Below are positions 41,327-64,000 of a stretch of DNA of 64,000 nucleotides, in pieces. Every line of letters starts with the position of its first letter. Position 1 is the first letter of the stretch. Below the pieces are notes generated by a model, which saw nothing but the letters and a program-made list of their open reading frames with translations, ran no database searches and had not been told where the DNA came from. The DNA is from Nitrospirota bacterium. Lineage in GTDB: Bacteria > Nitrospirota > Nitrospiria > Nitrospirales > Nitrospiraceae. The DNA lies in the NCBI GenBank assembly GCA_963701855.1, contig CAVPBK010000009.1, positions 1-64,000 on the forward strand, in the 5' to 3' direction. Both the position numbers and the translations under genes were made by a program.

Positions 41327-42049
41327 ATGTCGACCCCTGAACAAACCCCAGCGCCTCAAACACCGAGACGTCAATATGTGAACTTCGTCTTCTACAAAAT
41401 CGACCCGGCCTGGCGGCGCCTCCCCGAGAGTGAACGCACCAAAGGGAAGCAGGAGTTCATCCGTGCGGTCGAGGAGTATACCGGCAAGGTGCTCGTGGTG
41501 GCCTACTCCTCGGTCGGCATCAGGGGCGATTGCGACATCATGCTGTGGCGGATCAGCTACGAACTGGAACTATTCCAGGACATGACTACAAAGATCTTGG
41601 CTTCGGGCTTGGGGCAGTACCTGACCACACCCTACTCCTATCTCGCGATCACCAAGCGGTCCGTCTACGTGGATAATCACACGCACGAAAATCAAGAGAG
41701 CAAGCGGCTGACCGTCGTGCCAGGCAAAGGCAAATATATTTTCGTCTACCCGTTCCTCAAGACGCGCGAGTGGTTCCTGCTCACAAAAGCGGCACGGCAG
41801 GGCATGATGGACGAGCACATTGAAGTCGGCCATCGCTTCCCGTCGGTGAAACTGAATACGACCTATTCTTTCGGGTTGGATGATCAGGAGTGGGTGGTGG
41901 CATTTGAGAGCGATAAACCGGAAGACTTCCTGGATCTCGTAATGGCGCTCCGCGAAACTGAAGGCTCCCGCTATACCTTGCGCGACACGCCGATTTTTAC
42001 CTGCATTCGCAAGAGCCTCAAGGAAACGCTCGACACGCTCGGCGGCTGA
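41327..42049 (+). CDS. hemQ: Chlorite-dismutase-family protein, probably coproheme decarboxylase
   Basis: YPFLK motif, WFLL, proximal His in MMDEHIEVG, SFGLDDQEW. Strong RBS GGAGG. Confidence 0.8.
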   Translation: MSTPEQTPAPQTPRRQYVNFVFYKIDPAWRRLPESERTKGKQEFIRAVEEYTGKVLVVAYSSVGIRGDCDIMLWRISYELELFQDMTTKILASGLGQYLTTPYSYLAITKRSVYVDNHTHENQESKRLTVVPGKGKYIFVYPFLKTREWFLLTKAARQGMMDEHIEVGHRFPSVKLNTTYSFGLDDQEWVVAFESDKPEDFLDLVMALRETEGSRYTLRDTPIFTCIRKSLKETLDTLGG

Positions 42050-42391: not shown

Positions 42392-42594
42392 AAAACATTA
42401 GTATCCTGCCCGACATTGTCGTTCGTGACGAGTCGAAAGTAGTTGCGGCCAGATGAGCGGCGCAAGGCCTGGAAAAACCGGAGGTGTATTCGCTAGAATA
42501 TGCCGAGGCATTATTCGAGCCGAGCACGACGCAGATAGTCGCAGATCGTTCCGCCGCAGTAGCTCAGTCAATATCGGACAGGTTCCTGCACCCA

Positions 42595-43782
42595 ATGACC
42601 ACAATAGCCTCACCGACATCGCCACTGACCGTTGAAACAATCCGATCCGTCATCGATGCCATGCCCATACAAGGGCGGATTATGCTTCGACTGATCCTAC
42701 TCCAGTACTTCGACATCACGGACGAAGAAATTTTATATATCGTGGCAGACCGACCGGATCCCCGTTGCGTTGCCGGAAGCAAACCCACCAACATCACCAT
42801 GACCAAGGAATCAATTAAGGTGGTCACAGACCGGCGTGACCAATACCGACGGCAGGTACGGCTCAAACGGGAACGGACGTGGCTGCAAGGCGAGAGTCTT
42901 CGGAGTCTCGCGCAGCTCCGTGAGGGTTTCGCCGACCGTGCCCGCACCCTCCTGGCCGACCGTTTCTTCGTCTCCGCCGAGACGCTCGATGCCCTGCATG
43001 CATCCGCGAGAACAGTATTGCCCAGACCGGCAATTCGCCTGCTGGAGCAGCGTTGGGACACCGATGAGATCACAGCTGAGGATTATCAGCAACAACGACT
43101 CAGTATCGAGTTCCAAACCCAACTCCGCATGGCAGAAAAATATCGTACACGGCGCATCCTGGCGGAACGCGAGCGACAGAGCGCGATATCAGCGCCCCTG
43201 CAAGATCACGAAATTGCACATGTATGGGGCATCCCCGCCGGCAGTCTCGCCGCTCGAAAAGTGAAGTACCTCACGCAGTATCTGCAAGCCCTCCAGTCCA
43301 GGTTACAAAGCGACGGGGCAGCCACGACGTCCCCAGTGGATTTATGGAAGGAAACCTTCGTGGTGCTCGCAACGCAGCCCATCGAACGTTCGCTCTCGAC
43401 CTATGATGGGTTGGAAAAAACAGAATCCGCGCTCATCGACAAACTGACCGCCATGGTCTGGGGCAGTCTGCCGGAGGAGATCGAAGTGAAGTTCTGGACC
43501 TCGCTCGTCTTCGGAGCCAGCTCCAATGCCATGCACTCAGAAATCACCAGAAACTTGTTTGGGCTGCAACGGCTCATTACCATCCTCAACGACATGGACC
43601 GCTCTCCCGAGGCAATTGATGACGACTTACTCAAGCGGACCGCAGCCACACCCAAGATTGCGGTGGAAGCGCTTGAAACCGCTGCTGAGCATCCAGTAAT
43701 GGAATTGAGCGAGATGCAGGCTCAGATACTCAATAATATGAGGGGAGAAGATGCGAGCGGAAGATCCTCCGATAAGTGGTAG
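42595..43782 (+). CDS. Hypothetical protein (helical)
   Basis: Long ORF with typical codon usage. Start inferred. Confidence 0.8.
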   Translation: MTTIASPTSPLTVETIRSVIDAMPIQGRIMLRLILLQYFDITDEEILYIVADRPDPRCVAGSKPTNITMTKESIKVVTDRRDQYRRQVRLKRERTWLQGESLRSLAQLREGFADRARTLLADRFFVSAETLDALHASARTVLPRPAIRLLEQRWDTDEITAEDYQQQRLSIEFQTQLRMAEKYRTRRILAERERQSAISAPLQDHEIAHVWGIPAGSLAARKVKYLTQYLQALQSRLQSDGAATTSPVDLWKETFVVLATQPIERSLSTYDGLEKTESALIDKLTAMVWGSLPEEIEVKFWTSLVFGASSNAMHSEITRNLFGLQRLITILNDMDRSPEAIDDDLLKRTAATPKIAVEALETAAEHPVMELSEMQAQILNNMRGEDASGRSSDKW

Positions 43783-43846: not shown

Positions 43847-44284
43847 ATGGCCAGACAGTCACACTTCCATCCACAGCTTCAGCATAACCGAGTGGCACGC
43901 TTCCTGACTCTTCTACTCCCCCTTCTCGCCTTCAGCCTGGTACCGTTGCTTGCGCAGGCATCCGGTCTTCTGGAAATTACCGAACTCCTCACACACCCTG
44001 AGCAATACGATCGCCAAGAAGTGGTGGTAACCGGCCAGGTCACCAACGTCCAACTTGCGACGAATCGGCAAGGCCAGCCGGCCTATGGGTTTCTCTTGAA
44101 GGATCAGGCCGGCACGCTGAAAGTCATCAGCCTCGGTCAAATCGAAGTTCGAGAAGGCGACCAGGTAATTGTGGAAGGAGTCTTCTCGCGCCTTCGCCAG
44201 GTAGGACGCACGATCATCTACAACGAAATCAAAGCCCTCTCAATCAAACCGATAAATCGGCTCAACCCCGACCTAGTTGGTTGA
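43847..44284 (+). CDS. Exported OB-fold protein
   Basis: Signal peptide. ELLTHPEQYDRQEVVVTGQV..LKDQAGTLKV..GDQVIVEG. Confidence 0.75.
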   Translation: MARQSHFHPQLQHNRVARFLTLLLPLLAFSLVPLLAQASGLLEITELLTHPEQYDRQEVVVTGQVTNVQLATNRQGQPAYGFLLKDQAGTLKVISLGQIEVREGDQVIVEGVFSRLRQVGRTIIYNEIKALSIKPINRLNPDLVG

Positions 44285-44367
44285 TCTGGTTGCTCTGGTT
44301 TGTTTGGTTGATTTGGTTTATCTGGTTAGTCTCGTTCAACCAAATAAACAAGACAAACGAAACAACG
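44285..44367. repeat. 9-mer hairpin repeat (family A)
   Basis: TGA-TCTGGTTGCTCTGGTTTG..GTTCAACCAAATAAAC between convergent genes. Confidence 0.8.
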
Positions 44368-44372
44368 GCTTC

Positions 44373-45245
44373 CTAGCCCTCGCGCGGATAGTTCAACGCC
44401 CATCCCAGCAACTTGTCCTGAACTCGATCCGGTAACCACTTCACCATCCAAGCACGCAACTTAGCATCCGTGCCTACGAGATAGCGGGTGCGAGGGTGAA
44501 CGGCCGTTAATGCATGGTATACAGCTCGAACCACCGCACCCGGTGGAATCGCTCGCTGAGCCGCCTGTGCAATCGCTTCACGAATTCGGATCACAGCCTC
44601 GCCATAGAGATCCTTGGCCTCTTCGCTGACAGACGATTCAATGTCCCTTGCCCCCTTGGCTGATTTCTCCCAAAGTGGCGTCGCGATCGCCCCCGGCTCA
44701 ATAATCGACACCTGAATCCCCCAGGGTCGCAGTTCCATTCTCAACGCATCTGTCAGGGCCTCCAAAGCAAATTTCGATGCAGAATAGGGCCCCAAGAGCG
44801 GAATAGTCCCTCGTCCGGCAATCGATCCCATGTTCACGATTCGACCTCGGCCTCGGCGCAGCAACGGGAGGAACGCCTGCGTGACAGCGATCTGCCCAAT
44901 CACGTTGACCTCAAGCTGTTTCCGCAGTTGGGATAACGGAATCACTTCGAGGGGACTCCCGATAACGATCCCGGCATTATTGACAAGCCCCCCAAGACCA
45001 CCCTCGCCTACAACCCGTTGCACCATTTCGGTGGATCTCATAATCGACCGCTCATCGGTGACATCGAGCATGATGGGAATAAGCGATGGACCACCCCTTG
45101 CGGCAAGCGCCTCACCTGCCTGAGGGTTACGAACACCGGCAAACACTGTCATCCCACGAACGGCGAAATCGAGTGCGCAAGCCTCACCAATGCCGGTCGA
45201 AGCACCGGTCACCACAACAGCCATGGACGACGGACGATCAGACAT
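44373..45245 (-). CDS. Short-chain dehydrogenase/reductase
   Basis: TGASTGIG, NNAG, YSASK. Confidence 0.95.
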   Translation of the reverse strand: MSDRPSSMAVVVTGASTGIGEACALDFAVRGMTVFAGVRNPQAGEALAARGGPSLIPIMLDVTDERSIMRSTEMVQRVVGEGGLGGLVNNAGIVIGSPLEVIPLSQLRKQLEVNVIGQIAVTQAFLPLLRRGRGRIVNMGSIAGRGTIPLLGPYSASKFALEALTDALRMELRPWGIQVSIIEPGAIATPLWEKSAKGARDIESSVSEEAKDLYGEAVIRIREAIAQAAQRAIPPGAVVRAVYHALTAVHPRTRYLVGTDAKLRAWMVKWLPDRVQDKLLGWALNYPREG

Positions 45246-45484
45246 AGCAGGCTGCGAAAAAATTCTGTGGGCAACAGTCTCGCAGGATGCTCAAAAAGTC
45301 CAGACTTCTCACCCACCCAACCCTGGCGCGCCGAGACGCGCCTTGTCCCAAGCAAAGCCGCAGCGAGCAAATAGGTTGAGGTCGAGGTTAAGGTTGAGCG
45401 AAGATCAGACTCTTTTTTTTCTCAGACTCAACCTGAGCCGTAACCTTCCAATAACGCTGGCGGACTTTTTCAGCACCCTGCTAG
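45245..45484. repeat. MITE-like family B, long form with hexamer cargo
   Basis: TAGCAGGCTGCGAAAAA..GCAGGATGCTCAAAAAGTCC..AGGTTGAGGTCGAGGTTAAGG..GACTTTTTCAGCACCCTGCTAG. Confidence 0.75.
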
Positions 45485-45526
45485 GCGAGAGTACCACGAC
45501 TGCCTGTAAGAGAGCAGCCTCCTAGG

Positions 45527-45754
45527 TCAGCATTATTCATGACGGTTCGTCACGAGGTGGCAAAGTGGTGCGCGGGAAACGTGAAGACTGGCTGGTCTCT
45601 CTTGTTTTTCTAGTTTCTCTCGTTCGCTTGGTCGAACCAGATAGACCAGATGAACCAGAGAGACCCTCTCATCGCGCTTTTCCCGCTAGTCTCGTCCGTC
45701 TCGTTTGAATCAGGCATCGGCAATTGCAGCTGAAACGTTCATGAATAATGTGGG
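45527..45754. repeat. MITE-like family C containing a family A hairpin (45588-45665)
   Basis: GCATTATTCATGACGGTTCGTC...GTTCATGAATAATGTGGG. Confidence 0.75.
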
Positions 45755-45964
45755 TTAAATATATAAGAATTAACTCGGCAGAGCTTGACAGATCACGGTT
45801 CTTTCATTATGGTTTTCCGCTGTTGTACCATCATCCGACCACGACATGCCCCACAGTTCAGTGTGGTCTATTCTCACGCGGCACGAGAGAAAATAATCCG
45901 GCAATAAATCGCATACATCAGTTGAAGTATAAATTATAAGTAACTGAAATATAATAATTAATTT

Positions 45965-47515
45965 ATGGCAAAGATTGCCGTCATCGACATCGGAACAAAC
46001 TCAATCCATATGGTGCTGGCTGAAATCCAGCCGGACGCAGGCTACAAGATTCTCGATCGCTTCAAAGACATGACGAGGCTCGGGAACGGCGCCTTTACGA
46101 CGCACCGCCTCTCCGATGAGGCAATCGCACGTGGACTCGACGTCATTCGCAACCTCGTCACCCTGGCTAGGAACAAGGGCTACGATCGCATCATCGCTGT
46201 CGCCACCAGCGCTGTGCGCGAGGCAAAAAATGGAGGGGATTTTGTTGATCTCGTGGCCAAACACGCAGGGCTGGCCGTCCGCGTCATCAGCGGCACCGAA
46301 GAAGCCAGGCTGATTTTCCTGGGCGTCAAAAACAACGTGCCCATGACAGAACAGCCGGTGCTCTCAGTGGATGTCGGCGGTGGGTCGGTTGAACTGATGG
46401 TCGGGAACCGCGACCAGCTCATCCACTCAAAGAGCCTGAAGCTGGGCGCCATCAGACTGGCGGATGAATTCCTCAAACGCACGCCACCTTCTAAAAGAAT
46501 GCTCCGCTTACTCGAAGACACGGTGACGACCCAGTTACAGGGCGCCCTCGATTCATTCAAGACCAAACGATTCGATTCCCTGATCGCCACCTCCGGCATG
46601 GCGGCGAACTTGGCAGAAGTCATTCATCTGCGCCGAACGAATCGCCCGCTCCCGCAAATCAATCTCGCCACGGTTTCACTGAAGGACGTCAAAGAAATCG
46701 AGCAGGATCTCCGTCAATCTACCATTAGAGCCAGGCTGGCGATCCCCGGACTAGATCCCAAACGCGTCGATACCCTGTTTCCTGCCACGTTGGTCCTTCG
46801 GCGTCTAATGGAGATCTCGGAGCGAGATGAACTGACCCTTTGCGATAAGGCCATTCGGGAAGGCATGATCTACGACTTTGTCCATCGCCACCGTGAACGG
46901 CTTAAAACGGAAGCGGAAATTCCCGATTTGCGCCGGCGCAACGTCATGGCGCTGGCCCGTCGCTGTCACGCCCCGGAAACCCATAGCCTTCATGTCGCCA
47001 GCCTGGCCCTGCGCCTCTTCGACCAGACGGCACGCCTCCATCGTCTGGGACCCACCGAGCGGAACTGGCTTGAATACGCCGCGATTCTGCACGATGTCGG
47101 CTACCTCATCAACGAACAACAGCATCACAAGCATGCCTACTATCTCATCACGAATAGCGGCCTGGGTGGATTATCCGGCGAGGAGATTCAAGTCGTCGCG
47201 AATGTGGCCCGCTACCACCGGCGCGCAATCCCGCAACGGAAACACGAGGAATTCGACACCCTCTCACCCAAATACAAACGAATCGTGCGGATCCTGTCCG
47301 CGCTGCTTCGGATCGCCGATGGCCTGGATCGAACGCATTTTTCGGTCGTCCGCACCCTTGATGTGCGGCTCGGCGCCACGGTCACCATCATCGTTCGTGT
47401 CACAGGCGATGCGGAGTTGGAAACCTGGGCCGCCACAGGCCGGGCAGATCTCTTTGAACGCGTGTTCCGCCGCCGCGTGAAGTTTTCCGTCATCTTGCAG
47501 GACGATGCCGCATGA
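45965..47515 (+). CDS. ppx: Ppx/GppA exopolyphosphatase with HD domain
   Basis: IDIGTNS, ATSAVREAKN, DVGGGSVE, IREG, LHDVG, HHKH. Confidence 0.95.
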   Translation: MAKIAVIDIGTNSIHMVLAEIQPDAGYKILDRFKDMTRLGNGAFTTHRLSDEAIARGLDVIRNLVTLARNKGYDRIIAVATSAVREAKNGGDFVDLVAKHAGLAVRVISGTEEARLIFLGVKNNVPMTEQPVLSVDVGGGSVELMVGNRDQLIHSKSLKLGAIRLADEFLKRTPPSKRMLRLLEDTVTTQLQGALDSFKTKRFDSLIATSGMAANLAEVIHLRRTNRPLPQINLATVSLKDVKEIEQDLRQSTIRARLAIPGLDPKRVDTLFPATLVLRRLMEISERDELTLCDKAIREGMIYDFVHRHRERLKTEAEIPDLRRRNVMALARRCHAPETHSLHVASLALRLFDQTARLHRLGPTERNWLEYAAILHDVGYLINEQQHHKHAYYLITNSGLGGLSGEEIQVVANVARYHRRAIPQRKHEEFDTLSPKYKRIVRILSALLRIADGLDRTHFSVVRTLDVRLGATVTIIVRVTGDAELETWAATGRADLFERVFRRRVKFSVILQDDAA

Positions 47516-48261
47516 GCAACCAGCCCCCTCCATCCATCACTCCCCACCCCTATCCAGGGAAACTCATCATCGTCGAGGGCATCGACGGGTCCGGCAAGAG
47601 CACGCAATTGCTGTTGCTGCACAAGTGGCTGGAGTCGAAGGGTCATCGAGTCTTTTTCACGGAGTGGAACTCCTCGGAACTGGTCAAAGACACAACCAAA
47701 CGGGGAAAGAAAAACAAAAGCCTGACCCCGACGACGTTCAGCTTGTTGCATGCGACCGACTTTGCCAGCCGGTTCTATCATGACATTTTACCTCCGCTCA
47801 AAGCCGGCATGATCGTCTTGGCCGACCGCTACATGTACACGGCCTTCGCGCGTGACGTCGTCCGCGGCGTTTCGCCTGAATGGATTCGCAAGCTCTATAG
47901 CTTCGCCATTACACCCGACATGGCCTTCTACTTCAAGATACCGATCGAGTCAGCCATCTCGCGGCTCCTCGGAGGCACGCGTGGACAATTCAAGTACTAC
48001 GAAGCCGGCATGGACATGAACCTGAACCCGGACGTTACCGAAAGCTTCCGCCTCTTCCAATCGAGCATCCTGGCTCAATACGAGAAGATCGTCGATGAGT
48101 TTCAGCTCATCACGATGGATGCGACGAAAGACATCGAAGCCCAGCAGAACAACATGCGCCGGCTCGTGGGAGAGGCGCTCAAGGACTACAAACCAAGACG
48201 GGGCACCCATGGTCGACGCACGGTATTTTGGCGACGGTTTGATCTACCTAAATCCGAGTGA
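47512..48261 (+). CDS. Thymidylate-kinase-like P-loop protein A (candidate polyphosphate kinase subunit)
   Basis: IVEGIDGSGKST, LADRY, YEAGMD. ATGA overlap with ppx. Confidence 0.85.
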   Translation: MSNQPPPSITPHPYPGKLIIVEGIDGSGKSTQLLLLHKWLESKGHRVFFTEWNSSELVKDTTKRGKKNKSLTPTTFSLLHATDFASRFYHDILPPLKAGMIVLADRYMYTAFARDVVRGVSPEWIRKLYSFAITPDMAFYFKIPIESAISRLLGGTRGQFKYYEAGMDMNLNPDVTESFRLFQSSILAQYEKIVDEFQLITMDATKDIEAQQNNMRRLVGEALKDYKPRRGTHGRRTVFWRRFDLPKSE

Positions 48262-48943
48262 CCTCAAAGGGAAGCTCATCGCCATCGAAGGCACCGACGG
48301 TGTCGGCCGCTCCACGCACATCGAGATGTTGCAGGAATGGCTGGAGGTGCAGGGCTATGGCGTGATCACGACCGGCTGGACCCGTTCCAATCTCATGTCA
48401 AAAACGATCGAAATGGCCAAAGAAGGCAACATTCTCGACCGATGGTCATTCAGCCTGCTGTACGCCACCGACTTTGCCGATCGCTTAGAGCACGAGATTA
48501 TCCCCGCGCTTCGTTCAGGCTTCATCGTCCTGGCCGACCGGTACATCTATACGGCCCTCGCACGCGATTTTGTGCGCAGCGGGAACCGCCAGTGGGCGAG
48601 AGACGTCTTCGGCTTCGCCTTAGTGCCGGATCTCGTCTGCTACATGCGTATCGACGTCGAAACACTCGTGCTGCGCGTCATCGAAACCAAAGGAATGAAC
48701 TTCTGGGAATCAGGAATGGATCTTCGTCTCGGCAGCGATCTCTACGACAGCTTTAAAAAATATCAATCGCTCCTGATCGAGGAATTCGACAAAATGGCAG
48801 AAGAATTTCATTTCGAAGTGATCGATGCCAGACAGTCGCCGGATGAGATCCAGGACGCACTGCGCAGCAAGATTCAGCCGCTACTCGCCACCAACTTGCG
48901 CAGCCCGGCGCTACCGTCCGACCACCTGATCCAGCCGACATAA
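48209..48943 (+). CDS. Thymidylate-kinase-like P-loop protein B, variant Walker A
   Basis: IEGTDGVGRST (Lys to Arg), LADRY, WESGMD. Paralogue of the upstream gene. Confidence 0.85.
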   Translation: MVDARYFGDGLIYLNPSDLKGKLIAIEGTDGVGRSTHIEMLQEWLEVQGYGVITTGWTRSNLMSKTIEMAKEGNILDRWSFSLLYATDFADRLEHEIIPALRSGFIVLADRYIYTALARDFVRSGNRQWARDVFGFALVPDLVCYMRIDVETLVLRVIETKGMNFWESGMDLRLGSDLYDSFKKYQSLLIEEFDKMAEEFHFEVIDARQSPDEIQDALRSKIQPLLATNLRSPALPSDHLIQPT

Positions 48944-48949
48944 GAAGAT

Positions 48950-49036
48950 TGTTATTTGGTTTGTTTGGTTGTCTCGTTTGTCTGGCTTTTGGTTGAACGA
49001 AACTACCAAATCAACTGATAAACAAAACAAACCAGA
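48950..49036. repeat. 9-mer hairpin repeat (family A)
   Basis: Between convergent genes. Abuts the sixA TGA. Confidence 0.8.
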
Positions 49037-49552
49037 TCAACCTTCCACACCCAGTTTCCCGATCGCCCTTAGCTGACTCGGCGTCAACCACCAACGCAGA
49101 ACACCTTGACCTGGCTTCGGCGGAATCGACAGTTCAATCAGGCAAGCCCCGGCTTTCTTCAGGGGGAATGATGCAGAGGCTCGTCCGGATAGGAAGACAC
49201 TGGCTGCCATGCCCAGCTGCGGCTCGTGACCGATACAGAGCACACAGGACTCCGGCGGAAGATCGTGCAGAATCGACAAGAGCCGATTGGGCGGCGCATC
49301 CGGCAAGAGTGCATCGACGATCTGCACCTCAGCGCGAACTCGCAGCGAGCGGTGCACAATCGTCGCCGTCTCGATCGCCCGAATCAAGGGACTCGACAAG
49401 ACATGAGTCGGCTGCACATCGAGCCGGCGGAACCCAGCCGCCATCTGCGCCACGCGCTTCGCCCCGCGCTCAGTCAAAGGACGATCCGCTTCGGACCCTT
49501 CCCATTCTTCTCGCTCCACCGCAATACCATGCCGTACCAACACACAATCCAT
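49037..49552 (-). CDS. sixA: Phosphohistidine phosphatase SixA
   Basis: VRHG, RPLTERG, SSPLIRAIETA, GHEP. Confidence 0.9.
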   Translation of the reverse strand: MDCVLVRHGIAVEREEWEGSEADRPLTERGAKRVAQMAAGFRRLDVQPTHVLSSPLIRAIETATIVHRSLRVRAEVQIVDALLPDAPPNRLLSILHDLPPESCVLCIGHEPQLGMAASVFLSGRASASFPLKKAGACLIELSIPPKPGQGVLRWWLTPSQLRAIGKLGVEG

Positions 49553-49581
49553 CTTCCCTCGTTTCTGAATCAAGATTATTC

Positions 49582-49769
49582 GTAACTACTCAGGTCGATA
49601 GGCTGAAGGATTTTGGGGGTTGGACTTCTTGCGCAACAAGGACTCATCTCTGCTTGAACCCAAAGTCGTATGAACTGAGAAGGTATTGAATGACGTGATT
49701 CGTGTTTTGCGAAAGCATTTTTTATAGTCTTCACACTTCAGCCTTCAGCCTGAACACCTGAGTCGTTAC
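49582..49769. mobile_element. MITE family D (IS66-like ends)
   Basis: TIRs GTAACTACTCAGGT and ACCTGAGTCGTTAC. Perfect 8-bp target duplication GATTATTC at 49574-49581 and 49770-49777. Confidence 0.85.
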
Positions 49770-49805
49770 GATTATTCATGAATCCGCTCCCCGCCGCAAG
49801 CGCAT

Positions 49806-49975
49806 CTGAATCAAATCGGATTCTCCTATTAATCAAAACAGATTCAGATCAGATATGCCAGTCATCTCCTGCGCCTGAGCATATCCATTCGTCATCATGA
49901 AAACCCGGTAATTTTCAACGCAATGACGAGAAATTTCTCAAACCCGTCTATGTAGGCTACTGGCACAACGATTGC
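49806..49975 (+). promoter_or_regulatory. sigma54 promoter with upstream palindromic enhancer
   Basis: TGGCACAACGATTGC at 49961-49975. Tandem (G/T)AATC-N6-GATTC sites at 49806-49847. Confidence 0.8.
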
Positions 49976-50256
49976 TGTATGTCTCGTCAGAAGGGCACCA
50001 GGCGAAAACCGGCACAGAACATTCGAAAGAGTCATCAGAGCCATTTGAACCTATGAGGCGAGATGAGCAGTCAACCATCAGTCATTATTGGGCTCTTCGT
50101 GAGAACTCAATGGCGACATAAATCCTGGGCATACCAACCAGACCATCCTCCTCTGGTTGGGAGCCTTCTGGTTGACTGAGCGTCAACGCCATGGGAGCCC
50201 CGGCTCTGTCCTACCCAGAGCTGCGGCTCCCTCCTTCCTAGCTGAGCGAGACGGCT

Positions 50257-50390
50257 AAAGAAGTGCTGAGTGCTGAGTAGTGGGTGAGGCGGACGGAAAG
50301 GGCGAGATGGGCAAAGACGTTCTAAATTCTGAGTTAATAGGTTCTGCGTTGCCCGGAATTAACTCACAACTCAGCACTCAGCACTTCTTT
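50257..50390. repeat. Heptamer inverted repeat element (family E)
   Basis: 22-bp perfect IR AAAGAAGTGCTGAGTGCTGAGT and ACTCAGCACTCAGCACTTCTTT. Confidence 0.8.
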
Positions 50391-50431
50391 CGGACTGTAA
50401 TCGTCTCTTCTGCCAAATGCGGAGGTGGTGA

Positions 50432-51652
50432 ATGAAAAAGCACCTCGTATTCGTCGCGATGCTGATGCTGGGTCTCGGTACTGATCTGACGATGGCCGCA
50501 GTACCCGGTGATGCGCGTACCAAGAAATTTGCCATAGGCTACGAGTTCCTGAAACAAAACAAGTACCAGGAGGCGCGCGCAGCCTATGAAACCGGCCTGC
50601 AAGAATACCCGGCGAATGCCCTGGCGCACTTCTATCTCGGCGATGCCTGCCGAGGCCTGAAAGCCTGGGCCAGTGCGGAAGAACATTACGCGACATCGTT
50701 GGAGCTGGATACGAAATCTTCGGTGGCCGGGTTAGCCAGACAACGGATGCTAAAAGCCAAAATCTGGCGCTTGCTGAGCGAAGGAAAGCTGGCCATCAAC
50801 GAACCGAACACCCCACCCAAGAAGATCGCCGAGGCCAAGGACACCCTGGACATTGCGAACAAGCTGGGGCTTGATGACGAGCAACAGATCTTCTACCAAC
50901 AGGTGCTAGTGAAACTTCAGCAGCGACACACACAGAGTCATGAGAAGCCGGCGTCGGCCCCGCAGAAAAATTGGTCGATGGCACTGGTGCCAGCGGGGGA
51001 GTTCACGATGGGGAGTGCGACAGGAGATGCCGACGAACAACCGGTGCACAAAGTCTATGTGGATGCCTTTTTCATGGATATGCACCTACTGTCGGTGGCG
51101 CAATATGCGAGGTTCTTGGAAAACACGCACCATGACGTACCACCGGAGTGGAGTCTCATGAACAGACCCCAGAACCAGAATCGCCCAGTCGCCAATGTGA
51201 ATTGGGTTGATGCGGAGGCCTACTGCAAATGGGCCGGCAAGCGTCTGCCGACCGAGGCGGAATGGGAGAAAGCGGCCCGGGGGACAGATGGCCGGACCTA
51301 TCCCTGGGGAAATGAGCCTCCGACAGGGCTACACGCGAACTCAGGGAAAGAAGTCTGGAATAACCATGCAGTAGTGACACCGGTGGGATTCTTCGAAGAG
51401 GGCAAGAGTCCCTATGGTATCTATGACATGGCCGGGAATGTCTGGGAATGGGTCGGCGATTGGTATGACAAGGATTATTACAAGGCCAGTCCCTCACAGA
51501 ACCCGACAGGACCGCCAATGGGCTTGTACAAAGTGATTCGTGGCGGCTCCTGGGGCAGCAGTCGGAATAGCCTGCGCTCCTCGAACCGAGAAACCCATTT
51601 AACATCATTCCAGGGCTTCGGCACCGGGTTCCGCTGTGCGAAGACGCCGTAA
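50432..51652 (+). CDS. Exported TPR plus FGE-sulfatase (SUMF1/EgtB/PvdO-fold) protein
   Basis: Signal peptide, TPR helices, RLPTEAEWEKAARG, YDMAGNVWEW, RGGSW, GFRC. Confidence 0.92.
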   Translation: MKKHLVFVAMLMLGLGTDLTMAAVPGDARTKKFAIGYEFLKQNKYQEARAAYETGLQEYPANALAHFYLGDACRGLKAWASAEEHYATSLELDTKSSVAGLARQRMLKAKIWRLLSEGKLAINEPNTPPKKIAEAKDTLDIANKLGLDDEQQIFYQQVLVKLQQRHTQSHEKPASAPQKNWSMALVPAGEFTMGSATGDADEQPVHKVYVDAFFMDMHLLSVAQYARFLENTHHDVPPEWSLMNRPQNQNRPVANVNWVDAEAYCKWAGKRLPTEAEWEKAARGTDGRTYPWGNEPPTGLHANSGKEVWNNHAVVTPVGFFEEGKSPYGIYDMAGNVWEWVGDWYDKDYYKASPSQNPTGPPMGLYKVIRGGSWGSSRNSLRSSNRETHLTSFQGFGTGFRCAKTP

Positions 51653-51792
51653 TCTGGTTTCGTCTGTCTGGTCTATCTGGTTGGTTTAGTTGCTTGACCC
51701 AGAGAAACCAAACAAACGAGACAGACGAGACCGACCAGATAGACCAGACAGACCGAATAGACGAGACAGACCAGATGAACCAGAAAGACCAG
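51653..51792. repeat. 9-mer hairpin repeat (family A), long right arm
   Basis: TAA-TCTGGTTTC.. then GACCAGATA/GACGAGACA units. Confidence 0.8.
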
Positions 51793-51820: not shown

Positions 51821-52130
51821 CCCAAACGTACCTATTGCTAAAAATGCCGTACAGGTTTAATACGAGCTACCAGTTGCTTGCACGTCGCAGTGAATGTGTG
51901 CTGTGTGACTGGTTTCTCTCCCTGAATCTTCAAAGGAGCCGGCCATGAATGGCACCTCAGGCTTCCGAGAAGTGCGGTCTTCTACCTCCCGATCACCAAC
52001 AAATCGGTTGCTGCACGAGCAACGGCATCAATTCGGAACAGGTTCCTGGCACCTTCTCCGTACTCACGATCTCATTGCTCTCTCCACAGACATCAGCACA
52101 AAGAGAGAAACGGTTCCTGACACCGTTTTC
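51821..52130 (+). repeat. ~300-bp leader repeat, copy 1
   Basis: Colinear with 52140-52412 and 59801-60105. Ends GGTTCCTGACACC. Confidence 0.85.
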
Positions 52131-52139
52131 ATTCCCAAG

Positions 52140-52436
52140 CTTAATACAGGCTACCAGTTGCTAGCACGTCACCGTTTGTGTGCGCTGTGTGATTGGTTTC
52201 TCTCACTGGACTTTCGAAGGAGCCGGCCATGAATGGTGCTCAGGCTTCCGAGAAGTGCGGTCTTCTAGCTCCCGATCATCAACAAATCGGTTGCTGCACG
52301 AGCAACAGGCTCAATTCGGAACAGGTTGCTGGCACCTTCTTCGCGCTCACGATCTCGTCGCTCGCTCTACAGTTATCAGCACAAAGCAAAAAACGGTTCC
52401 TGACACCTTTTCTATCCCCTGACACCTTTTCTATCC
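52140..52436 (+). repeat. ~300-bp leader repeat, copy 2 (tandem)
   Basis: TTAATAC..CTACCAGTTG..GGAGCCGGCCATGAATGG..GGTTCCTGACACC plus a duplicated CCTGACACCTTTTCTATCC. Confidence 0.85.
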
Positions 52437-54763: not shown

Positions 54764-57700
54764 ATGAGCATTCGTCGCTCCGATCAGCGTTCAGCGAATC
54801 CCTCCTTTCTGTCGATTTTAGGTCTCACGGGACTTCTTGTCTTTCTATGTCACGCCAAACCAGAGATCATTGACGATGCCTACGCCGAGACCACGTCTCC
54901 GATTACGTCATCAGGGCTGAACACGACCATTACGCACTCTGGTTCCACGTATGATATTACAGGTGGAACCAGGCCGGGGAACGGTCCCAATCTTTATCAT
55001 AGCTTCGGTGAGTTTGGAGTTCCTGCCAATAACATCGCCAACTTCCTGAACGAGACTCCCAATCTGACGACTTCCAATATCCTTGGTCGTGTGACCGGAG
55101 GGAATCCGTCTAATATTTTCGGTACCATTCAAACCACTGGATTCGGCAACGCAAATCTCTTTTTGATGAATCCGGCCGGCTTTTTGTTCGGTCCGAACGC
55201 CACCGTGAACGTCGGTGGAATGGTGTCTTTCACCAGCGCTGATTACCTCAGACTCACGGACAATGCGCGGTTCAACGCCATCCCTAATACCGCAGTGGAT
55301 TCCTTGTTAACTGCCTCGCCGCTGATCGCCTTTGGATTCCTGGGATCAAATCCCGGAGCAATCACCGTTCAGGGCAGCCAGTTCATGGTAACGCAGGGAA
55401 GCGGCATCTCGCTGGTCGGCGGGAATATCACAATTCAATCTGGCACCCTCAACGACGGCACGGTCCAACCAGCCAAGCTTACTGCCCAGGGTGGTCAAAT
55501 CAACCTCACCAGCATCGCATCGGCTGGAGAAATACTCTCCTCAAATCTACAGTTAGGAGAGAATGTAAATGGCACGTCATTCACTTCCCTGGGGGGCATC
55601 ACAATTAGTCAGGATGCCCGAATCGACACCGCGGGGGCTATCGGTGGCACCATCGCGATTCGCGGTGGTCAACTCACAATAAGGGACGGCGCTACGATCG
55701 CCAGTGAATCAAGTTCGAGCCCTTCACCATCACCAGGCTCGGTCACCATCAGCGGAGCTGGCGTCCAAATGACAGGTGCAAATGTGATGGTCAACGGAAC
55801 GAATGTATCTGTGACGGGCTCCAAAGTGACTGCGGCCAATCTCGACGGCTCAGGAGGAATGATCACAATCACGGCGGGAAGTGCGGATCATCCAGGAAAT
55901 GTAACTGTGGCTCAGAATGCCCTACTGGACGCCAGCGGTACCAGGGGCGGCAGTATTAGCATCCGAGGTAAACAGTTGGTGGTGGACAACGCCACAATTT
56001 CAGCAGACAACAGAAATGCGGACGGCGCATCTATCGCCATTAACATAAATGTTACTGGAGACCTGTCCATAACCGATGCCCGAGGGATTCCCGCGATGAC
56101 GGCGCGAAATATGGGCACGGGAAATTCTGGCGAAATACGGTTGACCTCAGGCAATTTAGTAGCGACATCAAGCTTCAAACCTTCCTCTTTCACCACTACG
56201 TTGATTGATTCCCACACCTCGGGAGAGGGTCGAGGCGGAGACGTCTGTATCACTACAGGCAATCTCACTGTAGCAGGACCAAATAGTAACGCGTTTTTCT
56301 TTATCGATAGCGGAACGGTGGGGAATGGGCGTGGAGGAAATGTCTCAATCCAAGCCAACATAGTGGACCTCAACTGGACATCAATCAGTACGGGCCAATT
56401 CAACGTAAGTGCCCTGGTGGAAGACACCAGCGGCATCAATGGTTCAGCCGGCGACTTGACCATCGCCGCCGACACATTACGGCTCAGGAATTCTATTCTC
56501 GACACAGGTGCCTTCCTTGGACTATCCGAGTTCCAGAAGGGAGGAGATATCACCATCAATGCGCGTGACATCTCCATGATGAACACCCAAGCTGGCTCGA
56601 CTGGTCTTGACGGCGGTGGGACTTTCGTTATTAAGGCCGACAGGCTCGTAACAGACTTCACCTTCTTCGAAACAGATACGGTGTCCGGACCAGGGGGGGG
56701 AGTTAAAGTTAACGCTCGCGCAGTTGAGTTGACAAACGGAAGTGCCTTAATCAGCAGTACATTCGGCGACGGCAATGCAGGAGATATATATGTGACTGCC
56801 ACTGACCATGTAAATCTCATAGGTCGTACCGGTCCAAATCCTCAGGGAAAGTTTGAGCCAAGTGGTCTCTTCAGCAACTCGTTCGGAGATTTGGGTAGTC
56901 ATGGGAATGCGGGGAATATCGCTGTGACCACACCAAGGCTAGACATGATCGGTGGTCGAATCAATACTGTCACAGCATCGAGTGGTAACGGTGGAAACGT
57001 GACGCTCAATGTAACGGATAAGATCTCGATATCTGGAGAGTTTCTTTCAGATCCGAACATTGTGCCTTCAATTTTTATCTTAGGTCCTCTTGCGCCGAGC
57101 GGGATCGTTACTCAGACAATCGGCAGCGAATCCTGTTCGGGACCCTGCGGCAATGCCGGAAACGTGTCAATCACGACTGGCTCGCTGATTATGGGCAGCG
57201 GCGCCCAGATTGATGCCGGCACCAGCGGTGCCATGCCAGGAGGCGCCATTACTGTCCATGCGACGGATACGATCTCGATGTCTGGAACATTGAGTAATGG
57301 CTCCCCTGTCGGCATTTTCAGTCGCGCGTTCTCGACCGAACCCGGTTCTGGAGCCGGCGGCAACATTGCTCTCACAGCCGGGCAGTCCGTTATGATCTCA
57401 AATGGTGCCTCCGTCTCCGCGAGTAGCACCGGACCTGGCACCACGGGCAACATTCAGATCAATGCCGGCAGCCTATTTGCGATGACAAATCATAGCTCAG
57501 TGACGACAGAAGCCGACCAGGCAAGCGGTGGCGCAATCAAGATCTCTACGACTCCCAACGGCACGGTCCAGCTTACCGATAGCAAGATCAGTGCGTCGGT
57601 TCTCAACGGTGCAGGTGGTGGCGGCAGCGTGAATATCGATCCGCAGCTCGTCATTTTTCTGAACAGCCAGATCCTGGCCAACGCGGTGAATGGACCGGGC

Positions 57701-58150
57701 GGGAATATTTCCATCACGACCAATTTCCTGTTGCCGGACGCGAACAGCACGATCAGCGCCTCCTCGCAATTCGGCGTGAACGGCACCGTGACGATTCAAT
57801 CGCCAAACGCTCCGATTAGCGGCCATATTCAGCCGCTGGGAAAGACACCACTGATCGCAACGTCGCTGCTCAATCAACGCTGCGCATCGTTGGCCGGCGG
57901 TGAGTTTAGCAGCTTCACCGTGGCAGGCCGGGACAGTTTGCCAACTGAGCCGGGCAGCTGGCTCACCAGCCCACTGGCCCTGAGCTTGGCCGGGACCGGG
58001 AGCGGCACCTTGCCCGATAAAGGTGTACGCGCAGGCATCGATAATGATCCTGCACGTGAGACCACAGTTCTGTCGTTGCGACAGATCGCACCGGCTGGCT
58101 TCCTGACCCAGGCCTTCGCGGTGGATGAGCCGACAGGCTGTCAATCATGA
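54764..58150 (+). CDS. Filamentous haemagglutinin N-terminal (TPS) domain beta-helical exoprotein
   Basis: NLYHSFGEF, NILGRVTGG, NLFLMNPAGFLFGPNA, many GG.(I/V).I repeats, C-terminal ASSQFG..C..SSFTVAGR. Confidence 0.92.
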   Translation: MSIRRSDQRSANPSFLSILGLTGLLVFLCHAKPEIIDDAYAETTSPITSSGLNTTITHSGSTYDITGGTRPGNGPNLYHSFGEFGVPANNIANFLNETPNLTTSNILGRVTGGNPSNIFGTIQTTGFGNANLFLMNPAGFLFGPNATVNVGGMVSFTSADYLRLTDNARFNAIPNTAVDSLLTASPLIAFGFLGSNPGAITVQGSQFMVTQGSGISLVGGNITIQSGTLNDGTVQPAKLTAQGGQINLTSIASAGEILSSNLQLGENVNGTSFTSLGGITISQDARIDTAGAIGGTIAIRGGQLTIRDGATIASESSSSPSPSPGSVTISGAGVQMTGANVMVNGTNVSVTGSKVTAANLDGSGGMITITAGSADHPGNVTVAQNALLDASGTRGGSISIRGKQLVVDNATISADNRNADGASIAININVTGDLSITDARGIPAMTARNMGTGNSGEIRLTSGNLVATSSFKPSSFTTTLIDSHTSGEGRGGDVCITTGNLTVAGPNSNAFFFIDSGTVGNGRGGNVSIQANIVDLNWTSISTGQFNVSALVEDTSGINGSAGDLTIAADTLRLRNSILDTGAFLGLSEFQKGGDITINARDISMMNTQAGSTGLDGGGTFVIKADRLVTDFTFFETDTVSGPGGGVKVNARAVELTNGSALISSTFGDGNAGDIYVTATDHVNLIGRTGPNPQGKFEPSGLFSNSFGDLGSHGNAGNIAVTTPRLDMIGGRINTVTASSGNGGNVTLNVTDKISISGEFLSDPNIVPSIFILGPLAPSGIVTQTIGSESCSGPCGNAGNVSITTGSLIMGSGAQIDAGTSGAMPGGAITVHATDTISMSGTLSNGSPVGIFSRAFSTEPGSGAGGNIALTAGQSVMISNGASVSASSTGPGTTGNIQINAGSLFAMTNHSSVTTEADQASGGAIKISTTPNGTVQLTDSKISASVLNGAGGGGSVNIDPQLVIFLNSQILANAVNGPGGNISITTNFLLPDANSTISASSQFGVNGTVTIQSPNAPISGHIQPLGKTPLIATSLLNQRCASLAGGEFSSFTVAGRDSLPTEPGSWLTSPLALSLAGTGSGTLPDKGVRAGIDNDPARETTVLSLRQIAPAGFLTQAFAVDEPTGCQS

Positions 58151-61354: not shown

Positions 61355-64000
61355 ATGAATCATGCAACGTATCTTCCTGTTTTGGATGCCGGCTCCGAGC
61401 CGTCTTTCACGATACTTGTTCTTGGACTTCTGCTACCGTGGCTTTTCTACGTACCGATTGCAAGTAACGTTCAAGCCGGAGTCCCTACGGCGATCTCTCC
61501 GACTGACGGGACTGGAAGCCCTGCCAGCCTTGGTACAGTCATTACTTCAGGAACCTCTACCGTTCCGACCAATCTATGCATCGCAAGCTGTGTGATCACA
61601 GGGGGAACCACCGCTGGCCACAATCTCTTCCACAGTTTCGGTGACTTCAATATCGGCGTATCGGACAGCGCCCGATTCCAAACGGGACTCGTCAACCCTC
61701 TCCCCGATCCAAGCGTGTCAAATATTCTTGCCCGGGTCACGGGAGGGCTTCGAATCTATTCGGAAACTTGGACAGCGCCACCTACTACCCTTCCGCCAAT
61801 CTGTTCCTAATGAACCCTGCAGGATTTTTGTTCGGGCCGAATGCCACCATCAACGTCGGCGGGATGGTGGCCTTTACCAGTGCCGATTACCTCCAGCTGA
61901 CAGATGCGCACGTTTCAACGCGATTCCCAATCTGGCAGCCGATGCATTGCTGACTGCTTTGCCGGTTGCCTCGTTTGGATTCTTGGGATCAAATCCGGGA
62001 GCCATCACCATTCAGGGAACCCAGTTCTCCGTAACAGAAGGGCAAGGTATCTCTCTCGTCGGCGGCAAAGTAACGATTCAGTCAGGCACACCTGATGGCG
62101 GGATCAGCACCAGCTCAACTTCGGCACCAAACGGCAAGATTCAGCTGGCCAGCGCCGCCTCGCCCGGAGAGTTCGACGCCGCAACGCTCCAGGCGCTGCC
62201 AAGGGAGTGATCATCGTCGTTCACCTCCTTGGATCCATCGCTCTAGCATCGGGCTCAAGTATCGAACGTCAGGGCGCGAGTACGGTTTCGATTATAGGCG
62301 GGAAATTTGTTATCTCGGTGAACAACGCGGTGCTCTCCACTCACCTCTTCGCAGACCCCAGCCTGTCAAAGACGATTTCGCTGAGCCCAGGCAGTTCAAT
62401 AGTGATGTCAAATTCTGGAACAGATCTGGGCACTGACATACAGCTCATCGCCTCGAACGTCCAGATAGACGGAGCTTCCATTATCACTAGCCCTATTGAG
62501 GGGAGTATCGGAAAGGGAGGCAACGTCACGATCATGGCTACAGGCCCTGCCTCCTTCAATAACTCATTCATCGATACGCATTCTGACGTTGCCAATGGCG
62601 GCGGCGGAGCAGTCAAGGTGTCGGCTTCGGATCTGACTCTGCATAACACCACTATTATGACAAGCGTCTTCGGAGACGGTGTTACCCCAGTGACGAGCGG
62701 CGGTGGAGGTGGGGCAGTGACATTAAGAAAATACCACAAACGGATCATTCTCCATGACCGACTCAGCAATTGATACCTCTTCATCTTATGCCGGGAAAGG
62801 TGGAGAGGTGACGTTCACGGGCACTGAGAGTGTCACTCTGACACGATGCGAATATCCATACGGATTCATTCTTTCCAGTTTTAAATAACAATGCAAATAG
62901 CGGCGCAGTGGGCGCACGGCTCTCCTGTGGTTTTCTCTTCAAGGACAGCTTTATCTCTACATCTGTCAATGGAGACGTTGCCACACCCATAACAGCAAAT
63001 AGCGGGGCAGTCAACGCTGACCGGAATAAGGAGTGTATCCTTGCTACGCTCGTCAATCGATACCAATTCCTTTAACACCGAGGGGAATTCCGGTTCGGTA
63101 ATGATAACGGCTCCCACCGTCACTATGGTCGGAGACCCGAACCTTGTCGGGGCTGGTATTACTACTGGTACACATAATTTCTCGGGAGATCCTAATTCTG
63201 GCAATGGCGGAGATATCGTGATCACGTCAACGGTAACCAACGTGACCTTCACCGGGGCACATCTCGATAGTGCGGCCGACGGCCTCGGAGGATTCGGCCG
63301 CAAAGGAGGAGACATTCGGATTAGTGGCGCTCAAAGCATCCTTCTCGACAACGGAACGGTCTTCCTGTCCTCGACAAATAGCAAGGGCAACGCGGGGAAC
63401 ATGAGACTGGTGAGCCCGCATGTGACGATCAGAGGGCAGAGTACGCTTTCAAGTTCTACGTTTGCACAAGGGAGTGCAGGAACAATCACAATCACAGGCA
63501 AAGAGAATATTGCTATCGAATCGAGTTCGGCTCTCTTCACACTCGCAGACAGTGGGAGTCAAGGGCCGGCGGGACATATCGAGTTCAATACCCCGCAAGT
63601 TGACGATTGTTGGAGGAAGTCGAGTTCACAGTGAAACCTTCGGCTCAGGCCCAGGCGGTACTGTTACCGTCCAAGGCATCACTGGTCCTGCACAGTCGGT
63701 CTTGATCAGCGATCCCGGCAGCGGCATCTTCACCAACACGCGCGATACCGGCGCGGGCGGAATATCTTCGTAATGCCAACTCGGTCACGCTTCAGAACGG
63801 CGGCACGCTCTCGGCAACAACATCAGGTACTGCATCCTCGGCCACAGGCGGCACGATCACGGTGGACGCGGCGAATACCATCACCATGAACAGTGCCTCA
63901 ATCACGGCCAAGAGCGACGGGAGTGGCGAATGCCGGCAGCATCGATCTCACCGCGATGAACGGATTTACGATGCAGAACAGTACCATCACGACACAAGCT
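61355..64000 (+). pseudogene. Second filamentous-haemagglutinin-domain exoprotein, multiple frameshifts, runs off window
   Basis: NLFHSFGDF, NILARVTGG, NLFLMNPAGFLFGPNA and FGFLGSNPGAITIQG spread over at least six ORFs. Paralogue of 54764-58150. Confidence 0.85.

Follow-up and report, generated by a model that had tools for sequence, protein, structure and literature searches.

A probable family-3 polyphosphate kinase operon with two thymidylate kinase-like subunits in a Nitrospirota bacterium

A heteromeric polyphosphate kinase of the archaeon Sulfolobus acidocaldarius, built from the catalytic subunit Saci_2019 (cPPK3) and the regulatory subunit Saci_2020 (rPPK3), has been described by Hofmann et al. 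(J Biol Chem 2026; PMC12995831). Both proteins were formerly annotated as thymidylate kinases, and the operon that codes for them also holds ppx, sixA and a CHAD gene (PMC12995831). Here we describe a locus in a 64-kb stretch of DNA from a Nitrospirota bacterium (contig CAVPBK010000009.1, positions 1 to 64,000; hereafter the window), in which ppx is followed by two thymidylate kinase (Tmk)-like genes, called A and B below, with a sixA-like gene convergent on them. We conclude, with a probability of roughly 0.8, that the locus represents a family-3 polyphosphate kinase (PPK3) operon of a bacterium, made up of ppx, a cPPK3-type A and a putative rPPK3-type B, with the convergent sixA beside them. 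That figure applies to the family and the general reaction; our confidence in the details is lower.

In the published account, Saci_2020 is inactive alone and raises activity, the two subunits forming an alpha2beta2 complex (PMC12995831). The enzyme, SaPPK3, is reversible, favours the formation of ATP from polyphosphate (polyP) and ADP, prefers ADP whilst also using GDP, and is strongly governed by the ATP/ADP ratio. Saci_0893, a third paralogue, phosphorylates thymidylate (dTMP); the two subunits do not. The inactivity of rPPK3 is put down to the loss of the DRX arginine, a feature reported for Saci_2020 and STK_15420; STK_15430 is the homologue of Saci_2019. PPK3 is placed within the dTMP kinase (dTMPK) superfamily, apart from PPK2, in a clade of mainly bacterial dTMPK paralogues. 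Every predicted operon but one codes for both subunits, a canonical dTMPK is found elsewhere in all PPK3 genomes, and PPK3 neighbourhoods resemble those of PPK1 (PMC12995831). An earlier note on the present DNA had pointed to a ppx-linked heteromeric polyphosphate kinase from S. acidocaldarius; the Saci_2019/Saci_2020 pair bears this out.

Data S1 of the same paper scores genomes for PPK1, PPK2 and PPK3. Among the rows listed, 9 of 16 Nitrospira-genus assemblies are PPK3-positive, as are all four Leptospirillum rows (PPK3 = 1). The PPK1/PPK2/PPK3 scores are 0/1/1 for N. moscoviensis and N. inopinata, 1/2/1 for N. japonica and strain KM1, 1/1/1 for N. kreftii and N. tepida, and 1/2/0 for N. defluvii; the main text does not contain the string 'Nitrospir' (PMC12995831). 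The paper and its data table thus already contain the family, with its bacterial members and ppx/sixA neighbourhood, as well as its presence in Nitrospira. The earlier note had called such an operon uncharacterised in bacteria, which holds for bench work only, given that bacterial PPK3 operons had been predicted and Nitrospira assemblies scored as positive. Our own results show that the genes belong to the family and are inherited as a pair, define the signatures of the two subunits and provide a model of the complex that passes its controls; all activities, as well as the stoichiometry and any role of SixA, are inferred from the Sulfolobus enzyme.

The products of A and B match the Pfam family Thymidylate_kin (8.6e-20 and 2.6e-18, respectively) and are Tmk-fold paralogues with 40% mutual identity. 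Their closest homologues are 81-95% identical and, where named, are dTMP kinases of Nitrospira, including N. moscoviensis. Among solved structures, A best matches st1543/STK_15430 of Sulfurisphaera tokodaii (PDB 2plr, 4nzy, 4rzx, 5h70) at 1e-55, the best canonical Tmk following at 1.3e-13. The best solved match of B is also st1543 (2plr; 2.6e-45, 40% identity), followed by canonical Tmk at 5.1e-11. A structure model of B with a predicted local distance difference test score (pLDDT) of 90.7 and a predicted template modelling score (pTM) of 0.87 found st1543 entries as its top fold matches (E 2.7e-20, template modelling score 0.89-0.92), with canonical Tmk next at about 1e-11. These crystal entries hold a single protein from a thermoacidophilic archaeon, deposited as dTMP kinase, whereas the window codes for two subunits.

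Phylogenetic trees were built with five canonical Tmk as outgroup (from E. coli, Ruegeria, B. subtilis, Pseudomonas and a haloarchaeon). A quick tree of 177 rows, which omits three B fragments from loci L006 and L065, split the A/B-type rows from the five canonical Tmk with a Shimodaira-Hasegawa approximate likelihood-ratio support of 99. All 81 A rows fell on one side of a branch with support 92, and a starred B clade, with support 97 in this tree and 96 in a quick tree of 73 rows, held the 77 B rows and three library representatives. A careful tree of the 73 rows, in which the bootstrap had not fully settled, separated the family from canonical Tmk at 100/98 and gave the A clade 97/97. A phylogeny against Tmk had been among the checks proposed in the earlier note. 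The library protein P0338 matches STK_15430 at 2e-87 and is therefore a Sulfolobales-type cPPK3; its identity is 47.6% with A and 35.5% with B. Taken together, sequence, fold, tree and synteny support the placement of A and B in the PPK3 clade.

The two subunits carry distinct signatures, which we followed by column statistics over 81 A-type and 77 B-type sequences. The P-loop reads GIDGSGKST in A (residues 23-31) and GTDGVGRST in B (residues 28-36 of the 244-residue form). All 81 A-types have Lys as the Walker-A residue, and all 77 B-types have Arg, with the rest of the B-type loop kept as GxDGxGRST. At the dTMP-site (TREPG) position, four of the five canonical Tmk outgroups have R-E-P-G-G, whilst A has E-W-N-S-S and B has G-W-T-R-S. 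A motif shared by the pair reads YEAGMD in A (163-168) and WESGMD in B (166-171); its E, G and D are conserved at 95-100% across both sets, and the canonical Tmk rows are mostly gapped or different at these columns. Seven positions of the alignment (A K59, K63, R64, K67, R157, K161 and R180) hold a basic residue in 80% or more of the A-types and in less than 40% of the B-types. P0338 is basic at five of these seven and has the A-type EWNSS; since A shares EWNSS and basic residues with it, A is of the catalytic type. The likeness of A to st1543, in EWNSS and in lid motifs common to A-types, is likewise judged through P0338. The coupled and overlapping paralogues, both P-loops, the missing TREPG, the shared (Y/W)E(A/S)GMD motif and the convergent sixA had all been pointed out in the earlier note, and each is present as it described.

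B-types have features of their own, namely an Arg (R59, 99%) where A-types have an invariant Ser and an N-terminal F/Y-Y/F-G motif in 55-75% of sequences. The arginine of the DRY motif is invariant in A-types and kept in 77/77 B-types. More distant relatives (P0339, P0371, P0383) are without DRX or P-loop; the nearest other relatives of the DRX-less P0371 are acidobacterial B-types, and a search with P0371 led to B-types of Margulisiibacteriota type and from acidobacteria, with none from Sulfolobales. These comparisons support a catalytic-type signature in A and a degenerate one in B, and they make it doubtful that loss of the DRX arginine defines rPPK3 across the family. As a small addition to the published description, the partner found in the bacterial and thaumarchaeal majority carries another degenerate signature than that published for Sulfolobales, with Arg for the Walker-A Lys and the DRX arginine retained.

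A basic C-terminal tail, YKPRRGTHGRRTVFWRRF in the window (48160-48261; A residues 216-249), is common to Nitrospirota A-types (L001-L009, L032), with 8-11 Lys/Arg in 34-35 residues. It is partly coded within the overlap with B, and other A-types are about 15 residues shorter (median tail 19 residues, n = 70).

Several lines of evidence bear on whether A and B associate. Loci that group together by A also do so by B; in the 177-row tree, for example, Nitrososphaerota pairs stand with L056, L057, L067, L068, L069, L071 and L077 in both halves, and this congruence indicates that the pair travels as a unit. Strict adjacency, conserved order, overlapping frames and congruent trees are the evidence for association at the level of the genes. 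There are also natural fusions (P0242, P0246, P0252, P0258, P0372) in which another Tmk-like domain, devoid of a P-loop, comes after an A-type domain. Four of the five (P0246, P0252, P0258, P0372) have a PPX domain III/HD at the C-terminus. The fifth, P0242, is a 460-residue protein of Alicyclobacillaceae whose second domain lacks the P-loop and has DRY and WESGMD; its model, from only eight sequences and with no inter-domain error map, offers weak support (pLDDT 82.6, pTM 0.82).

A 1:1 complex of A and B was modelled from our own alignments of 42 A-types and 42 B-types. It scored 0.70 (runs 0.68, 0.70 and 0.70) against 0.00 for the best of three controls. A score of 0.70 is reached by 116 of 157 solved complexes and by 2 of 215 mismatched pairs, counts that are rough for a model made with alignments of this kind. 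Agreement between the runs covers 97% or more of the contacts, with a partner pLDDT of 82 or higher. The predicted interface is mostly pseudo-symmetric, pairing A 57-89 and 119-131 with B 62-95 and 129-136; B residues 8-13, which belong to the N-terminal motif peculiar to B and coded in the A/B overlap, also take part in it. The model, a check proposed in the earlier note, would support binding of A to B, with a predicted interface that resembles solved Tmk dimers. For SaPPK3 the heteromer is supported by size-exclusion chromatography, and for A:B by the predicted model.

Other domain fusions were seen among the relatives. cPPK3-like domains are fused to an MFS transporter and to an APH/DUF2252 kinase-like domain (among P0279, P0286, P0294, P0308, P0277, P0353, P0280, P0357 and P0271), the two named examples being from Elusimicrobiota. 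P0271, from the transcriptome of the eukaryote Ancoracysta twista, has an SPX domain. These MFS, APH and SPX fusions hint at polyP-related uses beyond the two-gene operon. In P0264, P0320 and P0323 a cPPK3-like domain is fused to an inorganic pyrophosphatase domain (PF18823); one of these proteins has 2575 residues and an ART-PolyVal domain, of the 'polyvalent protein' type.

The arrangement recurs widely. A HMMER scan with gene A against 1.84 billion representative proteins (clusters at 50% identity) gave 353 protein clusters at E <= 1e-30. A scan of one genome per species gave 469 relatives, the best 80 loci of which were used for synteny; counts from these are lower bounds, as many loci end at contig ends. 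The 80 loci comprise 71 bacterial, 8 archaeal and 1 unassigned, led by Acidobacteriota (31), Nitrospirota (10) and Chloroflexota (8), with no locus from Sulfolobales, and the bacterial ones span 16 named phyla plus three loci with no phylum given. An A-type gene followed by a B-type gene on the same strand was found in 78/80, the exceptions being L002, at a contig end, and L070, which lacks B; an arrangement recurring at this frequency is more than chance. ppx is present in 54 of the 80 loci, adjacent in 43, and sixA in 32. PPK3 thus seems wider in bacteria than the 'a few bacteria' of the published paper, judging by these homologues.

For the first 27 loci (L001-L027), Pfam was run on 138 of 446 selected neighbouring open reading frames (ORFs). 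Eight loci held a CHAD gene, five held Pst/PhoU-type genes, two held PhoB/PhoR-like pairs and one held PsiE, and none of the 138 ORFs matched the PPK1 or PPK2 families. A CHAD profile built from the 8 neighbour genes matched in 39/80 loci. The plasmid records searched yielded no PPK3-type gene: the 32 records that matched all fell short of 60% identity, and most were annotated tmk. In a single locus among the best 80, L070 of a Thermoproteota metagenome-assembled genome (L070:3500-5214), the A-type gene is preceded by ppx and sixA, and a convergent CHAD-like gene takes the place of B.

The locus shares with SaPPK3 a tandem pair of Tmk-fold paralogues next to ppx and sixA. In both systems, one paralogue has an intact P-loop, DRX and basic residues, the other is degenerate, and the dTMP-site residues are not conserved. 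The differences are that the host here is a bacterium (Nitrospira); that B, unlike the Sulfolobales rPPK3, retains the DRX arginine and has Arg for the Walker-A Lys; and that there is no CHAD gene nearby, sixA is convergent and not in the operon, and the Nitrospira A has its basic tail. Coupling of a polyP kinase to ppx also recalls ppk1-ppx operons, although PPK1 has an unrelated fold.

The earlier note had pointed out that PPK2 enzymes share the Tmk-like fold, but PPK2 is not the relevant relative. PPK2, like the enzyme proposed here, is a P-loop kinase moving phosphate between polyP and nucleotides, and in class II two-domain PPK2 an inactive domain serves oligomerisation (PMC12995831). However, neither A nor B matched a PPK2 model in Pfam; at E up to 0.01 the only families found were Thymidylate_kin, AAA_22, nSTAND_NTPase5 and dNK. 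A PPK2 identity was rejected on this ground, and the published work likewise sets PPK3 in the dTMPK superfamily (PMC12995831).

A number of points weigh against our assignment. Its functional side rests on homology at about 36-48% identity to the Sulfolobales-type relative. The position of that relative, P0338, varies between trees: it joins the A side with support 86 in the 177-row quick tree, whilst the quick and careful 73-row trees leave its join unresolved (supports 4-58 in the careful tree). Approximately unbiased tests reject neither placement, grouping with A costing 8.2 log-likelihood units (p 0.30) and grouping with B 19.1 (p 0.13), so the Sulfolobales c/r split and the A/B split could be one event or two. 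B departs from the published rPPK3 feature of Saci_2020 and STK_15420, the replaced DRX arginine, in keeping DRY; the comparison with these two proteins is by published description only. Since loss of this arginine explains the published inactivity, the inactivity of B is not established. The face predicted to join A and B is largely of the kind used by solved Tmk homodimers, and the pass of the complex model may therefore reflect this likeness and not binding of their own. A also passes, marginally, the NCBIfam dTMP kinase model TIGR00041 (83.9 bits; cut-off 83.25), which explains the public annotation.

The surroundings add further points of the same kind. The ppx product scores 263.9 bits against the NCBIfam exopolyphosphatase model TIGR03706, under its 307-bit cut-off, and matches both the PPX and GppA equivalog models weakly, so that PPX and GppA are not distinguishable here. 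CHAD is absent from the window by the purpose-built profile as well as by Pfam. Six of the nine PPK3-positive Nitrospira assemblies listed in Data S1 also have PPK1 and seven also have PPK2 (PMC12995831); PPK3 need not be the main polyP enzyme. Finally, no assay of a bacterial PPK3 was found in the literature, judged largely by titles; going by titles, 'PPK3' in biocatalysis papers appears to name a different enzyme.

Three other explanations were weighed against the PPK3 operon. In the first, A is PPK3-type and B has a working nucleotide site, making B either a second catalytic centre or an ATP/ADP-sensing subunit that sets the direction of the reaction. The DRY arginine of all 77 B-types, the always conservative change from Lys to Arg in an otherwise conserved Walker-A loop, and the B-types' own Arg59 opposite the Ser of A would suit such a site, and the Sulfolobus enzyme is itself strongly governed by the ATP/ADP ratio (PMC12995831). 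B nevertheless lacks the lid and cleft basic residues of A (R157, K161), Saci_2020 is inactive (PMC12995831), and the loss of P-loop or DRX from the second domains of fusions and from P0371, P0383 and P0339 suggests that the site is dispensable. We regard this explanation as improbable.

It is decidedly improbable that the pair is a phosphotransferase for some other acceptor or donor, such as a nucleotide kinase linked to the turnover of (p)ppGpp by an enzyme of GppA type, or a polyP:AMP or polyP:GDP kinase. The ambiguous ppx product leaves room for a GppA, substrate preference is not readable from sequence, and the family's basic cleft would suit any polyanionic phosphate. However, CHAD in 39/80 loci and the Pst, PhoU and PsiE neighbours point to polyP and phosphate, not to the stringent response, and there are fusions that link the pair with PPX domain III or, in other lineages, with a pyrophosphatase or an SPX domain. 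The sole assayed member uses polyP with ADP, which is preferred, and GDP (PMC12995831).

That A and/or B are genuine dTMP kinases from a duplicated tmk, their link to ppx being incidental, is extremely improbable: both match Thymidylate_kin, the A P-loop and DRY are intact, A narrowly passes TIGR00041 and homologues are publicly named dTMP kinase, but R-E-P-G-G is replaced in both, B scores 67.2 bits and is under the same cut-off, the A/B clade stands apart from canonical Tmk at 100/98, pairing with a B-type in 78/80 loci and with ppx in 54/80 is unlike a housekeeping tmk, and the closest assayed relative, Saci_2019, is reported to have no dTMP kinase activity (PMC12995831). A canonical Tmk identity was rejected for both genes on the missing dTMP-site motif, the sub-threshold equivalog score of B and the position of both outside the Tmk clade. 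What the family shares with canonical Tmk is the fold, the P-loop, the DRX motif and the lid arginine; Tmk genes such as E. coli b1098 usually stand beside holB, whereas the A/B pair stands beside ppx. The proposal of the earlier note, a mis-annotated tmk pair forming a catalytic and an accessory subunit of a polyP kinase, is thus supported by sequence, fold, tree, synteny and signatures.

Returning to the PPK3 operon, a mechanism can be proposed by analogy with SaPPK3. A would be the catalytic subunit, holding ATP or ADP at its P-loop and polyP in a basic cleft at the site that accepts dTMP in dTMP kinases, and would catalyse Mg2+-dependent, reversible transfer of the terminal phosphate between polyP and ADP/ATP. 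B, with its Walker-A Arg and without the lid and cleft basic residues of A, would be a non-catalytic or regulatory partner, which may bind A through the Tmk-type dimer face and its own N-terminal motif and raise the activity of A by oligomerisation. PPX would hydrolyse polyP to phosphate. The operon would then combine a reversible link between ATP and polyP with a drain, acting as a phosphate and emergency-energy buffer, and translational coupling of ppx, A and B would keep their amounts linked. A more speculative idea, which we think unlikely, is that B in bacteria and Nitrososphaeria is a conserved nucleotide-sensing pseudokinase, marked by the invariant Walker-A Arg, the intact DRY and the invariant Arg59, which would read ATP/ADP and switch A between making and consuming polyP.

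The coordinates of the operon and its overlaps are given in Table 1. The ppx product matches PF02541 (Ppx-GppA; 2.1e-61), PF21447 (4.4e-28) and HD (5.3e-10) in Pfam. Its four-nucleotide overlap with A is also found in most Nitrospirota loci, for example L001 to L007, and the overlap of A with B is 53 nucleotides in L001, L004 and L007 and 56 in L009. The sixA-like protein has an RHG motif at its N-terminus, matches His_Phos_1 at 9.3e-11 and scores 65.7 bits against the NCBIfam sixA model TIGR00249, under the cut-off of 74.5; its stop lies 93 nucleotides from that of B. A convergent sixA follows B in 8/10 Nitrospirota loci, and L002, L004 and L006 reach a contig end before the sixA position.

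Table 1. Features of the ppx-A-B locus and the convergent sixA-like gene, in window positions
Feature	Position	Strand	Description
ppx	45965..47515	+	Ppx/GppA-family phosphatase, 516 amino acids, C-terminal domain III/HD
ppx stop/A start overlap	47512..47515	+	ATGA; translational coupling, from sequence
Gene A	47512..48261	+	cPPK3-type (catalytic-type) subunit, 249 amino acids; public annotation dTMP kinase
A 3' end/B 5' end overlap	48209..48261	+	53 nucleotides; codes part of the A basic C-terminal tail and the B N-terminal YFGDG motif
Gene B	48209..48943	+	rPPK3-type partner subunit, 244 amino acids; likely ATG 48209, ORF open from 48095
sixA-like gene	49037..49552	-	Codes for a histidine phosphatase and converges on the operon; TTG 49573 is the first start listed, ATG 49552 is in frame

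Pfam scans covered 51 ORFs of the window. A and B apart, none of these was a Thymidylate_kin gene, and genes for PPK1, PPK2, CHAD and Pst were all absent. A promoter consensus scan gave 1 site against 3.0 expected and a search for terminator-like sequences 4 against 5.1 expected, nothing above chance, and Rfam had no match within 44000-50500 at E <= 0.1.

Short arrays of a 9-nucleotide unit (ACCAGATAG-like or its complement) occupy three intergenic regions near the operon, at 45636-45665, 48957-48985 and 51662-51792; their chance translation gives a 'TDETDQ' ORF at 51694. Upstream of the SDR gene that precedes ppx lies a 432-residue ORF without a Pfam match (42484-43782), and ORFs of 396-417 residues, also without a match, take the same place in the closest Nitrospirota loci (L001:1440-2627, L003:1214-2410, L004:1840-3090). 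A tandem duplication (51857-52412; 283-nucleotide unit, 2.0 copies, 86% matches) lies downstream of an FGE-sulfatase/TPR gene. Further away are short ORFs with reverse-transcriptase, group II intron maturase and integrase-core domains, which look like mobile-element remnants (998-2902), a 1128-residue ORF with an N-terminal two-partner secretion (TPS) domain (54764-58150) and a second, short TPS-domain ORF (61355-61810). A chlorite dismutase-family gene is found at 41327-42049 (PF06778, 3.7e-59), which presumably fits a Nitrospira origin of the DNA.

Nitrospira is a key nitrifier in soils and wastewater plants. Because database entries call the A-type and B-type genes dTMP kinase, metabolic reconstructions of Nitrospira miss a polyphosphate kinase and count spurious copies of tmk. 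Another point of interest is biocatalysis with ATP regeneration, for which a mesophilic bacterial PPK3 would be a candidate. If B should prove to be a nucleotide-sensing subunit, then in Nitrospira lineages without PPK1, three of the nine PPK3-positive assemblies listed in Data S1, the enzyme would be the main polyP route in globally important nitrite oxidisers and comammox bacteria.

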